Shown here: in pieces, positions 13,359 to 63,670 of the stretch
How the letters are laid out: each line of letters begins with the position of its first letter
Position numbering within the stretch: position 1 is the stretch's first letter
Assembly (NCBI GenBank): GCA_951406725.2
Contig: OX597827.1
Span: forward strand, 29,574,001 to 29,638,000
Length of the DNA stretch: 64,000 nucleotides
Direction of reading: 5' to 3'
DNA from: Octopus vulgaris
Lineage: Eukaryota
Program-made: the position numbers and the translations under genes
Notes under the pieces: model-generated
The model's database searches: none
The model's input: the letters and a program-made list of their open reading frames with translations, nothing else
Told to the model about the DNA's origin: nothing

Positions 13359-13439
13359 AATAAATAATATATAAATATATGATTATATATACATACATAT
13401 ATGTACATACCTACAAATATATGTATATATACATGCATA

Positions 13440-13610
13440 TATGGGTACAGGACATCAAAAAAACCTTGAACACAATGAGAAACGAAGACATAAAAACAAG
13501 AACATAGAAACGAACTTTTTTTCAAACAACGGGAAAAAAAGAGAACAAGACATACAACACAAGGAATATTCCCCTTCTTCAGTTGTCCCTGTTTCATCTA
13601 CTCCGCGTTT
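13440..13610 (-). mobile_element. PLE pseudo-LTR fragment with a partial swapped-order hammerhead
   Basis: Reverse complement AAA-CGCG-gagtagatgaaacag-GGACAA-CTGAAGA-AGGGG, then a T-rich tail. Confidence 0.55.
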
Positions 13611-35580: not shown

Positions 35581-35775
35581 ACCATGATTGACCGCTAGCT
35601 ACAATTTTTTAAAACTTCTCTCTCTGTTTATTTCCTCGTGTTCCTTTCTGTTGAAGAGCGTAGGCTCGAAACGTAAAAGACTTTCTCACCTTCCCCAGCG
35701 TTAAACTAATACACCTGTTTGTTGTTTATACACCTGTCTTTGTCTTTCGTTTTTCTGTAAATTTTAACTATATTT
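35577..35775 (+). mobile_element. Solo pLTR family 2 with minimal HHR-like motif
   Basis: ttt-CTGTTGA-a-gagc gtag gctc-GAAA-cg-TA-aaa at 35643-35680; copy at 60775-60980. Confidence 0.65.
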
Positions 35776-36007
35776 ATATATACATATTTCGTTTTGGGAT
35801 TTGGCTTGCAAGATTCTTTATATGAATTCATGTGTTGAAGCATATTCTGTTGTGTCTGGGGAGAGTCATTCTCTTTTAGTGCTTTATTATTTAACACCCT
35901 CACCGGTAAACTTTCCACTTATTTTTATTTTCTAAAATTTTCGTTGCGTCTTGCAACCTTTTCAATAGTATTGGCTTAGATTTTCTTTTGGGGCTGACCA
36001 GATCGGA

Positions 36008-36068
36008 GCAATCTCAAGATTAATCAGCTGAAATTGCGAGGATGATCCGGTTCTTGACTGAAGATCGA
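36008..36068 (+). ncRNA. Candidate non-circularly permuted hammerhead
   Basis: GCAA-TC-TCAAGA / ttaatcagct-GAAA-TTGC / 14 nt / TCTTGA-CTGAAGA-tcga. Confidence 0.65.
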
Positions 36069-36157
36069 AGGCTTCAAATGTCTCATCCGTGTTTTTTGTA
36101 TCGTCTTCTAAATGTTTTGCGTTCTTGTCCCAGTTTGTATTTATATATGTAAGTACA

Positions 36158-38142: not shown

Positions 38143-38261
38143 TATATATATATATATTGATAAAAATGGCAAGACAACAAAAGAATGAAAGAGACCTCGA
38201 TATTATGTAAATAGAGTAATTTATCTGTAAATATAATATGTGACAATTATTCGGTAGCCAT

Positions 38262-38322
38262 GATAAAACTCCGAGTTTCAGATGTCGGGGCGGAAACCCA
38301 CGCCGGCATCTCTTCAGTTATC
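38262..38322 (-). ncRNA. Type I hammerhead
   Basis: gataa-CTGAAGA-gatgccgg..ccgacatc t-GAAA-ctcggag-TT-ttatc. Confidence 0.8.
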
Positions 38323-38818
38323 GGGCCATCGGAAAAAATGCTATGAAAATTACCTTTGTTTAACGGTCATTTTCATAGCTGGTCACTTTATACCCAGAAC
38401 AGTGGCCTTTGACCACTTAAGGCAATAAAAACTGGAGAGAAAATTCTTTCTGTACCAAAAACAAGCCGTACGCGTGTGAACGCGCGAGCGTAATACACAC
38501 AGAGAACTTTGTGTGTGTGTGTATCTGTCTATATACAGCGAGTTAAAAAAAGATATACCGTTCGTCTTTTTATGTGTTAAATTTTACAATCATTACAGAA
38601 GACTCTGTGAGGGACTATGTTTGATATTTGCAGATAATAAAAGTGCGTTGATTATGAATTTTGATTGAAAAGATGGGGCCTCAAAACAAAAGGTTGCAGG
38701 GAACCTCTAAAAGTCATGCGATGGCCCTACCGATTGCAAGCCCCCAAAAAGCATTCAACATACATTCAAGGATATCTTCGAAAATATTTTCTCCTGAATT
38801 ATTTGCTCCGTATTGAAA

Positions 38819-40843: not shown

Positions 40844-42572
40844 GGAGTAAACACATAAATGTGAAACAAGGTGGAAAAAAGAGTACTCAAATACCAGTGG
40901 TAGAGTAATATGCTTTATTTTAAGCAGCAGAAAATTCAACAAAATCTGTTACTCTGAGTTTCTCGTTGCCGTTCATCAGACAGTTTTTGCTAGAATGGAA
41001 CATATATATTAATTCAATCTATACTCTTACAAACGCTACACCTTTAAAAAGAAATGGACTTGTTTGATTGGCCCTTTAGAAAAAACGGTCAATCTTCGAG
41101 CGATAAACAAAAAGGTCAAAAATATATGTATATAAATATAAAAAACTTATAAAAATTATAAAATCCGAGGAAAAAAACCGAGGAAAAAAACCTATTGCCG
41201 TTAATGAAGACAGTACAAATTAATGCAGAGAAATTAAACCTGTTATAAATACTGCAATACATATTTATATTAAAATCCACATATATATATCAACATACAC
41301 AAAAGGATGCGCGTAAACGCCATACATACATATACAGACGTATGAATATGAATCTAAATTATACACATAAAAGCATGTGTACATATATTCACGCAAACCG
41401 TCTCGCACGCAAGCTAAAATTCATCTATGTAGCAATTCTCATATACTGAGCAAGGAGGGGGAACGAAAGAAAGGGAAAGAGAGAAAAAAGAAACGAAGGA
41501 GGGGTGGGGAAAAAACTTGTAGCGATATTATTGGCATCTATAGAGGCCAGTATACATACACAAGTTTGAATTGATACATATACATACCGTCGTGTGTATG
41601 CGTGCTTAAGCACAAGCATACTTTCACTTACACATACACAGATACGCATGCTTACAAATACATATGCTTTGCTATACACAAACTTATATAAACATTCTAA
41701 ATTTGACAACATTGCTTTTTTTAAAAAAAACATTGCTTTTAAAAAATGGGTGCATTAATAAAAATATATACGAAAGACATATAAAATAAAATAAAATAAA
41801 ATATAACATCCTATTTTGGGTCATTTATAAATAATCAAGGTAATATAAATAATCAAGGTAATCTTATGCAATACAATAACATGAAAACAAAGTTTGTAGG
41901 TTTTTCCTAATATATATGTAGAAACAATAAGACTTTGCTATAGGTCCGTCGTAGCGCTCAAGAGTCAAAATCAAAATCAAAAAATCAAAATACAAAATAT
42001 ATACTCTATCCATATGGTATATTTATATTCGACATTTTAAATTTAGCCGTGTGCCTACATAAGTTCATTAATTCACTTCTTTGATTCAAAGAATTGTTGT
42101 CTTTGAATAATATGTGCATTTTTTCTAATAAGCAAAGCCTGCACTTGAAATTATATTTGTAAGCTCCATGCCTGTATGGTGCCGCCCTGTCCAGAATGCT
42201 CCATGTCACGTTGAAAGGTGGGGCTTCCTTTTCTTTTAGTTCCCAGACATATTTTGCTAGGCTGGTTTTCTTTCTATTCTCTGGGTATTTAAAAGAATTC
42301 TTATGAGAATAAAATCTTGTTTTAAATGAATTTTCTGAAGCCCCTGTGTATGTCTTGTATTCCGATGAGCCTTCCACTTGCACCTTGGCTCTATAAACTA
42401 CTCCTTTCACTAGACATTTCCCTTCTAACGGACAGGAGCTTTCGTTTTTGAAATTACATTTCTTAATGGGCTCGGCACCATGTCTAATCTCAATTAGCTT
42501 CCTATTATGTTGGCTAATGTAAGAGGCGAAATTTCTGCAACAAGAATAGCTAACCTTGAATTTTCTGCTGCT
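40840..42572 (-). mobile_element. Naiad-like PLE 3' fragment (GIY-YIG at 42006-42570, 3' UTR, HHR)
   Basis: GVVYRAKV..YTGASENSFKTRFYSH..TSLAKYVWELK..CRLCLLEK. Confidence 0.82.
40941..40988 (-). ncRNA. Type I hammerhead
   Basis: aaaaactgt-CTGATGA-acg gcaa cga-GAAA-ctcagag-TA-acagatttt. Confidence 0.82.
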
Positions 42573-51713: not shown

Positions 51714-51837
51714 GCGAGTATGTAGAGATATAAGTATGCAAATCCTCTCGTTCACGTACGACATAATGCGGCAGCAGCATAGAATTGGAGCGTCCATCTC
51801 TTTCTTCTCTCAATGTAGAATGAGAATGTAGAATGTT

Positions 51838-53109
51838 TCCTACCCGTATAGGAAACCAGAAGAAACTACCAAATACATCCATACCTCTTCCAACCATCCA
51901 CCCTGTATAATTAGCACCACAGTCCAAGCCATCTCAGACAGACTGACAAAACTATCCTCTAATAGAGAAATTTTCAATAATCATGCTCAACACTACAACC
52001 AGGCTCTCTATAGTGCCGGGTATAACCAGAGAATATCATATGTAGACCAACCGGGAGCGTCCGTCGACCATAAGACTCCCAATTATAATCGAACTCAGCA
52101 CTCAACTCACACTACCGATAAGTCTAATTCAAACTCCAAACAACGTATAGGAAATAGGCGAACTAATAGAACAGCACACAATAGTAACCCTCCCGACGAG
52201 AGCAATATAGATCCTATTAGGAGAAATAGAAGGGATAATAGTAGATTACGCAAATATATATGGTTCAACATACCTTTCAACTTAGCAGTTAGGGGTAAGT
52301 TATGTAAGAGAATATTCTCTATAATTTCCAACAACTTCCCACCCACCCACAAATATAGAAGTATCTTCTCCAACAAAACTATTAGGATTTCCTACTCTAC
52401 CCTGCCCAACATGAGCTGCCTCTTAGCTAAACACAACTATATTAATATTAGAACAGCTAGATCAAGAGCAAACCATAGCGACCAACAGAACCCCCCTCAT
52501 CTAGACAGTAGGCAATATAACCAGACTGGCAGCCATACTACCCAAGCAGTTAGTAATAACACCCGCCAACACAACAGAGGAAATACTACACCCATCAACA
52601 ACCAGGAGGATACCAACGCCCCCACTCGTATTGCAACACCTCCGCCTGGGATTAGCAGCACACGACCGAATAATGCAATGCAATGCAACTGCAGATGTGC
52701 ATCAGAGTGCCCGCTGCAGGGCGCATGCAGGGCGAAAAACGTAATATACTCATGTGAGGTGAGTACTCAGTTTAACACACTCACCTATATTGGTTGCTCA
52801 ACCTCCTGGAAATTCAGATACTACAACCACCGGTCCTCGCTGAGACATAGACATAAGGCTAACAGCACCTCCCTCTCTAAAAGAATTTGGGAATTAAAAG
52901 ACAAATGCATAGGCTTCAAACTCAGATGGTCCATCATCGGATCAGCTGCACCTTATTTAAATAATAGAGCAGGATGCCAACTATGCTGTGTAGAACTCCT
53001 GGACATCTTGAAATTCAAAGACAAACACAATCTTATTAACAAAAGGTCAGAGTTCAAACCATCCTGTATACATAAACTTATTAATACTTTCAAATACTAC
53101 AATGCTTAG
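51838..53109 (+). CDS. PLE RT thumb + Cys linker + GIY-YIG (5'-truncated, uninterrupted frame)
   Basis: YPYRKP..YIH..SNHPP, WFN.PF, ISYS..PN, CNC-x5-C-x5-C, VIY..YIG, CQLC..E; I read no stop from 51838 to 53106. Confidence 0.87.
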
Positions 53110-57147: not shown

Positions 57148-58012
57148 GACTGGCTGTCATAGCCAAGATGTTTGTGACCAAGCGGCCAAAGATAACAAAA
57201 GTAATAAACGAAGATAATAAAATTAAAATTAGGGAATGGGTCTGTATTTGTATGTGCATATATATGTGTGTGTGTGTAGGTATGCATAGGTACACATATG
57301 TATATATATGTATATATATATATACATGTATGTATATGTATGTGTGTGTGTGTGTATATGTGTGTGTATGTGTATATAGGGACTAGTGTGCTGTGTGTGC
57401 ATGTGTGTGTGTGGATATGTGTGTGTATGCGTGTATGTGAGTATGTGTGTGTATGTGTATATATATTTTTCTGTGCGTATATGTATGTGTGGTCGTGTGT
57501 GTATATATACATGTGTGTATACGTGTATGCATGTGAGTGTGTGTATGTATACATATATGTGTATGTGTAGATATGTATATGTATGTGTAAGTGTATATAT
57601 ATGTATATATATATATGTGTGTGTATGTATGTGTGTATGTATATGTATATATGTTTGTATGTGTGTGTATGTATGTATACATGTGTGCATAGGTATAAGT
57701 GAGAATCTCCTTATTTACCTAAAACTCTATTCCCCTTTTTTATATATAGATTTTTTATTTTTTTATTTATTTTTATTTTATTATTTTATTTTTTTATTTT
57801 TTTATTTATTCTTCTATCTAATTTAACACTGACTCCTTGACCACTCCCCCAAGTATGATATTTTGCGCTATGCCTACCCCCAAAAAGTCCCCCACCAACA
57901 CCCCTTTAAACCTGCCTAAATGTATAAATGCCTATACAATTCTTGTTAACTAGCTTCCTGAAGATTTCTCTTGAATGAAACAGTTCTAGTCCTGTAGAAG
58001 CTCCTTCTATAT

Positions 58013-58017
<5 letters not shown>
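57148..58017 (+). mobile_element. PLE pLTR/3' UTR, right arm of large inverted repeat
   Basis: Reverse complement of 50202-51069. Confidence 0.82.
57952..58002 (+). ncRNA. Type I hammerhead with true helix III
   Basis: agcttc-CTGAAGA-tttc tctt gaat-GAAA-cag ttctagtc ctg-TA-gaagct. Confidence 0.82.
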
Positions 58018-62040: not shown

Positions 62041-62270
62041 TAGATATAGATATATATATAAATATATATATATTCTATCTTATCTCTTGTCAAAGAAAAT
62101 ATTTCACCAGCGTTCGCTATTTTACCCTCATTCTGGTCTAACGAACCTCCATGTTTGTTTTCGTTCGGTTTCCTTGTATGTCTCCATTGTTGTCTTTTTG
62201 TTCCCAACTTTAACCATCCATAAATCCCAAATTTTATTGTAGTATCTATGAGTGTAACTCTCTTCGAAGA

Positions 62271-62333
62271 CTCATATTGTCGTTCAATGCTCGAAATGAG
62301 GAGCAGACAGAGAGCCGACAACTGATGAAGGGT
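62271..62333 (+). ncRNA. Candidate non-circularly permuted hammerhead
   Basis: CTCA-TA-TTGTCG / ttcaat-GCTC-GAAA-TGAG / 15 nt / CGACAA-CTGATGA-a-GGGT. Confidence 0.7.
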
Positions 62334-63029
62334 TTTTCTTTATGTTACTTGACATATTTTCCGTTTGTTTCTCTCGTTGTTTGCGTACTGCAATCATTTG
62401 TTGTCATATTTCATGTTGTTTACTGTTTGTAACGACCTGTTCGCATATATGCATGTGTATGTATATATATACATATGGGTGTGTGTGTGTATTATTTGTA
62501 TATGTTTATATATATATACATACATACACACATGCATACACACATATATACATATATACATATGCGTAGCGGATATATATTAATCATTCCATTCTCTCTC
62601 TCACTCTCTTTCTCTCTCTATCTCTCTCACTCTTCCGCTTTCTCTCTATCTCTCTCTCTTCCGGGACTTGAGAGACAAATAAGAAGACAAAACACAAAAT
62701 AAGAATGAAAAAAACAAACAAAAGAACCGTTACTCGAAATGAAGCGGAACTAGAAGTACTTGAACGAAAGTATTTATGCTGACTCCAAACGGCACTTCAT
62801 CTATTTGTCCTATCATTGCATTGGGTGACTTAACAATACGCGACATCTACCAGCGTTTGTAGGCCGATTGTGATACATTTTATTCTCTGTACAGGTAAGC
62901 CGTTATGTTTCCTTATTTATTGCTTATGTTATCGTATCCTGTAATGGTTTTGGACCTTAATGTTTACTATTCTTTTAATTAGATTATTTTTTCTTTCATT
63001 GCTTTTTCATCGTGTGTAAATATGTCTAT

Positions 63030-63482: not shown

Positions 63483-63670
63483 GGCTCTATATTTAAGAGA
63501 TCAGGAATTATGTACATTTTACATTTGACGGAGATTTGTCCTCATCTTTTTTGTTGTTAACACAACGTTCCGGCTGATGAAGGCTGGAGGGTATATCAGC
63601 CGAAACGTTGTGTTAACAACAAACAAGATGAGGACAAATATCCGTCAAATGTAAATAATGTAAATAATGA
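63483..63670. mobile_element. Fold-back pLTR of the 26650 PLE family, HHR core at 63574-63613
   Basis: Arms 63483-63578 / 63594-63670; matches 27117-27225. Confidence 0.8.

Follow-up and report, generated by a model that had tools for sequence, protein, structure and literature searches.

What does the stretch of Octopus vulgaris DNA analysed here (64,000 nt, hereafter the window) encode at position 36008, where the conserved words of a hammerhead ribozyme occur in a swapped order, and which of the surrounding bases complete the core? An earlier note had listed the block words and spacings of this motif, and all of them are present at 36008–36064, including the 10-nt spacer and the 14-nt spacer that starts with GAG (Table 1). 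Both strands of the window were scanned for the six possible orders of the three hammerhead blocks, which carry the cleavage site (S), GAAA (G) and CUGANGA (C), with at least five Watson-Crick pairs in helix I, at least four in helix III and a span of 100 nt or less. Only two motifs were found, at 36008 and 62271, both of them S-G-C. The same note had raised the doubt that such a pattern might be equally frequent in shuffled DNA; it is far rarer there. Dinucleotide shuffles in 1-kb blocks gave one match with six plus four pairs in 2,753 shuffled windows, compared with the two observed, and three matches in the same 2,753 windows at a looser five plus three pairs. A profile search of the window gave no Rfam hammerhead among the 150 listed of 213 matches, and none reached the gathering score in seven loci; non-circular block orders cannot match the Rfam hammerhead models. 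The six block-order permutations were laid out by Eckert 2023 (PMC10085705), and the S-G-C order itself is thus already published. Type SGC (HRIMA-1 and variants) was reported there from metatranscriptomes and from no known organism.

Table 1 Elements of the 36008 motif and related repeat copies, with positions in the window
Feature	Position	Strand	Basis
5′-truncated family A copy; left end joined to another repeat family, right end into (TA)n	35971..36150	+	Copy comparison
Hairpin Pc, 3′ arm (Pc 5′ arm and Pa 5′ strand missing here)	35971..35991	+	Intact in other copies
Helix II 5′ strand GGCUGA, starting with G10.1, upstream of the cleavage block	35992..35997	+	6/6 pairs with 36024–36029
Helix X 5′ strand (clamp joining the outer ends of stems II and I)	35998..36004	+	Two pairs change on both sides
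Kink-turn-like loop, short strand GGA, between helix X and helix III	36005..36007	+	Sequence
Block S: III3′ GCAA 36008–36011, U16.1-C17 36012–36013, I3′ UCAAGA 36014–36019	36008..36019	+	Sequence scan
Block G: II3′ UCAGCU, GAAA 36030–36033, III5′ UUGC 36034–36037	36024..36037	+	Sequence scan
Kink-turn-like loop, long strand (GAG GA U), and helix X 3′ strand GAUCCGG	36038..36050	+	Pairing tests
I5′ UCUUGA 36052–36057 and CUGAAGA 36058–36064, the half of block C that stays downstream	36052..36064	+	Scan
Closing helix Pa, 3′ strand, directly after A9 (partner lost here)	36065..36080	+	Comparison with intact copies
Family B copy with the same fold (about 62213–62333; predicted cut after A62276)	62073..62471	+	Scan and comparison
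Family D copy	13387..13610	−	5′ end 16 nt after the predicted cut

Searches of the source genome (2.8 Gb in 227 contigs) placed the motif in a repeat family, A, with 2,777 candidates, the best 40 copies of which are 95–96% identical. Its unit, judged from tandem copies at two loci (L034 and L158), is non-coding and about 700–750 nt long, and its copies have a fixed 3′ end that runs into (TA)n or (CA)n and variable 5′ ends. The family is present in assembled contigs from four runs labelled organisms A–D, which has no bearing on expression or cleavage. The 62271 motif belongs to family B, with 4,618 candidates. A pattern built from blocks G and C matched the genome 7,612 times, against 4 matches for a reversed control. 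Subfamilies C1, C2, C3 and D came to light in this way, and A2, A3 and F emerged from additional scans. Patterns for A3-type copies and for family E gave 1,483 matches (1 in the control) and 650 matches (14 in the control), respectively. The family E pattern also picked up an unrelated 34-nt sequence, seven copies of which, 5–29 kb apart, form a segmental repeat at G000:C2:44918160–44987330 (−). Families B, C and D share sequence, and A shares none with B. The swapped-order architecture had been said to be common to families without sequence similarity, and the lack of any BLAST match between A and B agrees with this.

The point on which the earlier note erred is helix II, which it had drawn as UCGA with UCAG. 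The strand before GAAA pairs instead over 6 bp, with a G-U at 10.1–11.1, with a strand that lies upstream of block S. This 3′ strand reads UCAGCC in the family and differs in the window copy by a C-to-U change at 11.1. Among 27 copies of A and A3, 95% of the cells of the upstream helix are paired; its G10.1 pair is broken in 2, compared with 13 for the downstream G10.1-C11.1 pair. The G10.1-C11.1 pair is G-C in 24 of these 27 copies and in 42 of 47 copies of B–D. The best upstream helix II averages 4.1–6.0 bp, mostly Watson-Crick, over 137 S-G-C copies, and at fixed offsets its mean is 3.4–5.8 bp against null maxima of 1.1–2.0 in all six families (121 of 134 copies, 13 having been dropped for a simple repeat within 90 nt upstream). 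In B–E the Watson-Crick run is 3.1–5.6 for the upstream helix and 1.0–1.5 for the downstream candidate. The 47 B–D copies are 94.5% paired in the upstream helix, where three of five pairs have changed on both sides, and 93% paired in the downstream alternative, mainly by G-U pairs that use bases of the closing helix Pa; a G-U-rich downstream helix II is possible in these families.

Because the downstream helix II is unsupported and the 5′ strand lies upstream, the 36008 motif begins well before 36008 and is not a plain type SGC hammerhead, in which II5′ lies within 1–2 nt of CUGANGA. CUGANGA is therefore parted from G10.1, that is, block C is split between A9 and G10.1, and two additional helices, Pa and Pc, occupy the gap. 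A plain type SGC model was dropped on account of its weak downstream pairing and of the Acropora consensuses of Naiads, a group of Penelope-like elements (PMC8557442), in which, by eye, a strand upstream of block S is fully complementary to the one that precedes GAAA and no downstream helix II complement is seen. A model in which an upstream purine run pairs with sequence 3′ of helix II was also rejected, in favour of Pa and Pc, as 154 of 720 permutations did as well and it was no better than shuffles. In families C and D, G8-A9 plus the three bases that follow are also perfectly complementary to the strand preceding GAAA; pairing of these two would be an inactive alternative.

The U-H site and helices I and III were examined in 92 copies, scored after the removal of 18 locus-strand entries (truncated, inverted junctions or misassigned). 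A U-H dinucleotide stands at a fixed offset per family in 90 of the 92, a rule that lay outside the search patterns for most copies, in contrast to CUGANGA and GAAA, which lay inside them for many. Helix I averages 4.7–5.0 of 5 pairs and helix III 3.2–4.0 of 4; their sequences vary between families, and pairing is found only within a family. When matched and mismatched subfamilies were compared, using the best-paired copies of each family as representatives, the observed value was reached by 2 of 720 permutations for helix I, 6 for II, 1 for III, 1 for X, 6 for Pa and 2 for Pc. All six helices thus covary across six subfamilies, and the covariation of helices I and III that had been proposed from two motifs holds, with the reservation that the double changes represent few events because the subfamilies are related.

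Helix X is formed by the strand after II5′ and the strand before I5′, and an internal loop connects each of these strands to stem III. The loop of A, A2, A3, E and F consists of three unpaired bases and then a G-A and an A-G pair. A 3-nt bulge with such pairs next to it, between two helices, is the kink-turn pattern, and the loop of these families is kink-turn-like in sequence. The loop of B–D is longer and GA-rich (7–9 x 8), with nearly invariant letters, and the Acropora type has a 7-nt bulge in place of the hinge loop. Hairpin Pc lies directly 5′ of G10.1, and directly 5′ of Pc is a strand that pairs with the bases after A9 to form Pa, which averages 11 bp in 55 family A copies, with mostly zero unpaired bases in B–D and two U-U oppositions in A. 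In the predicted fold of an intact copy (L201), Pa has pair probabilities of 0.99–1.0, most pairs of Pa, Pc, X and III are at 0.8–1.0, and the strands of I and II are free. An alignment of the 27 A and A3 copies has 49 pairs that are 90.4% formed, with 41 double changes; none of 500 shuffles scored as high, and slid controls were 28–47% paired. Among the representatives, those of A, A3 and B alone have folds that clearly beat their shuffles (z of −3.9, −3.4 and −2.2, with −1.1 for C1, −1.4 for D and 0.0 for the window copy). Mean length did not exceed the shuffle maximum for Pa in B, C1, C2, D and E, for Pc in C2 and E, and for X in E. If the family A RNA is closed into a circle, its blocks read C-S-G; the layout has one link of the CSG type (clamp to III3′) and one of the SGC type (III5′ to clamp), and is opened inside the core.

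The hallmarks of Penelope-like elements, namely a fixed 3′ end, 5′ truncation, tandem and inverted copies and (TA)n sites, are all present. Tandem arrays have a period of about 865 nt for C1 (L156) and about 750 nt for A (L158). At L156:5598–10000 (+), at least six non-coding C1 units of ~865 nt, each with one split-core motif, form a retrozyme-like array, and the units contain a GTAAG donor-like word and long pyrimidine tracts. The Penelope-like setting proposed in the earlier note therefore stands as far as the (TA)n flanks, the fixed 3′ end, the 5′ truncation and the tandem units are concerned, and falls short in that an autonomous element for family A was not found. No coding partner of family A was identified, among 132 upstream stretches of all families none had an ORF adjoining family A, and a reverse transcriptase (RT) and GIY-YIG ORF on the same element was not seen for this family. 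Two candidate carriers of family B were rejected. In L083, the RT fragment next to a B copy is part of a separate young family (that of L146, with a 717-aa ORF), which has a canonical-order motif in its repeat. The GIY-YIG fragment that abuts B in L068 is C-terminal and was linked to B in 1 of 30 loci of that endonuclease family, which makes L068 probably a chimera; at many of the other loci the fragment is followed by a different repeat with CUGAUGA, of canonical order where readable. Pfam gave no family for three Penelope-like protein pieces.

Other hammerhead-like and Penelope-like features were observed in the window and at the loci fetched. On its left, the family A copy is joined to a repeat that often occurs as inverted pairs and that contains a minimal hammerhead of canonical order (type I) with C3 changed to U at 35646–35680 (+). 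A long inverted repeat surrounds a canonical-order core (CUGAUGA, a 6-bp helix II and GAAA) at 63512–63662 (+), and its II3′ strand shares 11 letters with that of family A. Two more canonical-order (C-G-S) hammerhead-like motifs lie at 57950–58015 (+) and about 38230–38325 (−), and broken Penelope-like ORF remnants at 42033–42560 (−) and 51751–53073 (+) are 27–37% identical to the L146 protein. The family of L146:361–2511 (+) is a very young Penelope-like family of 10,830 candidates, with many open 717-aa frames, arranged in clusters both tandem and inverted. The canonical-order motif of its repeat reads CCGAAGA in L146, and the family is a candidate supplier of RT in trans. Beside family A copies near a contig end, L159 and L160 hold tandem units of ~555 nt, each with a canonical-order hammerhead.

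A link to RT came from Naiads, which were reported without canonical hammerheads, some of them, including Naiad_Ovul, being marked 'HHR_core' or 'HHR_half_core' (PMC8557442). We read by eye the last ~300 nt of 47 consensus records in the supplement of that paper. Five of them, Naiad_Obim, Naiad_Ovul, Naiad_Amil, Naiad_Aacu and Naiad_Anas, have the split layout. Six nematode records (Naiad-1_Nbra, Naiad-2_Nbra, Naiad-3_Nbra, Naiad_Hcon, Naiad_Hpol and Naiad_Asuum) have a complete plain type CSG motif with perfect helices I–III and clamp helices of 9–16 bp. Partial motifs occur in Bfor, Esco and two Darwinula records, and no such motif was found in the 3′ parts seen of the remaining records, bivalves included. 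In Naiad-2_Dst and Naiad-3_Dst (File S5 of PMC8557442), some 370 nt seem to separate block S from the GAAA block downstream of it, yet the strands of helix I (7 bp) and of a long helix III remain complementary; these records may hold an S-G-C form enlarged by a long insert.

Naiad_Obim and Naiad_Ovul have family E as their 3′ end. Of 14 copies of this family that were fetched, 8 satisfy the S-G-C scan, and no ORF was found in the sequence upstream of the 14, which extended to about 800 nt at most. Locus L333 holds a Naiad-like RT remnant; beyond an insertion behind it comes the sequence that lies upstream in family E, continuing as far as the motif. Scanning metagenomes for the Acropora motif returned seven loci, four with a 7-bp upstream helix II, one with a helix II mismatch and two truncated just after the cut site; the split layout is seen in metagenome loci L326, L327, L329 and L330. 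In L327 an RT fragment lies 347 nt upstream of the Acropora-type motif; its Naiad label rests on PMC8557442, because Pfam gave no match for the fragment. Thus, in family E (L333), in the Acropora type (L327) and in the published consensuses, the fold comes after a Naiad RT that lacks an endonuclease downstream. Families A–D have the fold of family E in common and no sequence similarity with it; on the basis of the fold, they may derive from a Naiad.

Our preferred explanation, which we consider quite likely, is that the window holds a truncated copy of a retroelement RNA fold in which the full hammerhead core is non-circular and II5′ stands apart from CUGANGA, and that intact copies would cut themselves. 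The observed sequence, pairings, covariation and repeat anatomy, together with the connection of family E to an RT remnant, suggest the following course of events. The RNA begins with the 5′ strand of Pa, hairpin Pc, II5′ with G10.1, the 5′ strand of X, the hinge, III3′, U-H and I3′, and, after a short linker, continues with II3′, GAAA, III5′, the hinge, the 3′ strand of X, I5′, CUGANGA and the 3′ strand of Pa. Pa, Pc and the arm made of X, hinge and III would fold first, as a nested structure. The arm would then bend at the hinge, and the stem III loop would dock on the two single strands beside helix X, forming stems I and II as pseudoknots. Pa and Pc would stack end to end with 0–2 unpaired bases, so that A9 and G10.1 would emerge next to each other from a nick in a single helix, an arrangement that would take the place of the single extra base of Penelope-type hammerheads. 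Intact copies would cut after the U-H dinucleotide (the equivalent of C36013), cleavage would release unit-length RNAs from tandem or read-through transcripts, and a Penelope-like enzyme provided in trans may then insert copies of these RNAs into (TA)n. Known alignments are stated to have at most one or two bases separating CUGANGA from its neighbouring stems (PMC10085705), so that activity with two helices between CUGANGA and stem II would be unprecedented.

The 5′ ends of genomic copies bear on the predicted cut, which falls after C36013 in the 36008 motif. Among 87 copies found by patterns without block S, a small sample conditioned on an intact GAAA, 21 have a 5′ end that falls between 0 and +12 nt relative to the predicted cut, and the interval from −4 to −1 contains no ends; the upstream background is 44 ends in 547 bin-exposures, or 8% per 17-nt bin (P = 4e-6). 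Among 39 incidental copies, likewise a small sample, 11 of the 23 at risk end at 0 to +30, compared with 7 of 30 in the next bin downstream and 2 of 12 in the next upstream. Per 31-nt bin, running upstream, the fractions ending are 0.06, 0.12, 0.23, 0.48 (0 to +30), 0.17, 0, 0.1 and 0. The family D copy of the window is of this kind, lacking block S and most of GAAA because its 5′ end lies just past the predicted cut. Such a pile-up fits templates that start there and hints at cleavage in vivo, and part of it could come from short insertions. The window copy itself is probably not active, since it lacks the 5′ strand of Pa and half of Pc, has a U at 11.1 and folds like its shuffles, and we regard it as probably weak or dead.

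An unlikely reading of the same data is that the fold is a relic or a protein-binding 3′-end structure, for example an RT docking site, that keeps hammerhead letters without cutting. The split core is without precedent, and the hinge loop sequence is conserved, as is often the case at protein sites. Moreover, Penelope-like hammerheads cleave poorly in vitro (PMC4209133), and the canonical hammerhead of the Anolis element was not needed for insertion in one in vitro system, where no reads ended at the cut (PMC11167929). This reading has difficulty with the retention of CUGANGA, GAAA, U-H and G10.1-C11.1 from corals to octopus while the surrounding helices change, with a U-H that is never G in 90 of 92 copies, and with copy 5′ ends that stop sharply at the predicted cut. 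It is similarly doubtful that stems I and II form only between two molecules or tandem units, as a swapped dimer, so that only multimers cut, a proposal that differs from the preferred self-cutting fold only in acting in trans and not in cis. Tandem arrays do exist (C1 and A), with respect to the nested fold stems I and II count as pseudoknots, and minimal Penelope-like hammerheads act as dimers (PMC4209133). Against this, stem III is a stable intramolecular helix of 5 bp (12 bp in the Acropora type) and not a dimer-forcing palindrome of 1–2 bp, and the hinge is located where a monomer must bend. Very improbable, finally, is an ordinary type SGC ribozyme that switches, with helix II just after CUGANGA (one bulged A in B–D, five extra bases in A) and the upstream pairing as an off state: it would account for the high downstream pairing of B–D, for the GGCU five bases past A9 in family A and for an unpaired base before stem II, typical of Penelope-like hammerheads (PMC4209133), and type SGC does cleave in vitro (PMC10085705), but the downstream strand is held in Pa by Watson-Crick pairs, its own Watson-Crick run is short, its pair is broken in about half of the A and A3 copies and the Acropora type has no downstream complement.

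Under the split-core explanation, the motif shares with type SGC the order of S, G and CUGANGA, the full core, the short linker between stems I and II and a helix between the outer ends of these stems (PMC10085705). This clamp helix, the circled-I helix of Eckert 2023, corresponds to helix X and was shown to be required in type SGC. The differences are that type SGC has an intact block C with helix II after CUGANGA, whereas here II5′ is upstream and two helices lie between A9 and G10.1, that both clamp strands run here into stem III through the hinge, and that the split layout occurs in animal genomes in thousands of copies, the type SGC examples having come from metatranscriptomes. With type CSG, described from two examples in metagenomes (PMC10085705), the fold has the same circular strand order, although the octopus and coral form is opened inside block C and not between blocks. 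As in Naiads (PMC8557442), there is a (TA)n preference with tandem and inverted 5′-truncated insertions; unlike Naiads, families A–D are non-coding and have no sequence similarity to family E. The minimal type I hammerheads of Penelope-like pseudo-LTRs and the non-LTR retrozymes (PMC4209133; bioRxiv 10.64898/2026.07.22.740005) also have one ribozyme per unit near the 3′ end, non-coding tandem units and an extra base after A9. Their hammerheads, however, belong to circular type I (C-G-S) and have a very small, palindromic stem III, whereas the one described here is non-circular with a stable stem III, so that the type I hammerhead per unit of a non-LTR retrozyme is absent although tandem non-coding units are present. 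We found no description of the split-core layout in the literature searched; Lunse 2017 and Weinberg 2015 could hold related variants. A 2026 paper mentions hammerheads 'containing additional helices', citing Weinberg 2015, Eckert 2023 and Forgia 2023, and the consulted part of Forgia 2023 contained no such passage.

In conclusion, the motif represents a real and widespread hammerhead variant, which is probably active in intact copies. We lean towards a wider reading in which many Naiads carry permuted hammerheads, of type CSG in nematodes and as a split five-way junction in corals and octopus, that may set repeat 5′ ends in vivo. On this reading, the split layout, whose core is interrupted between A9 and G10.1 and whose stem III bends back at a hinge, would be an addition to the six proposed and would be carried by several thousand retrozyme-like repeats in the O. 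vulgaris genome. We offer as an answer to why Naiads seemed hammerhead-free that standard descriptors are blind to these block orders. The split fold would break the assumption underlying the list of six layouts, that the CUGANGA block is uninterruptible, and would mean that the A9–G10.1 link is replaceable by an entire helical domain. It would also place non-circular permutations, previously drawn from anonymous environmental sequences, in named animal retroelements with a plausible job, and, with CSG and split forms within one clade of elements, the evolution of non-circular permutations would become testable.
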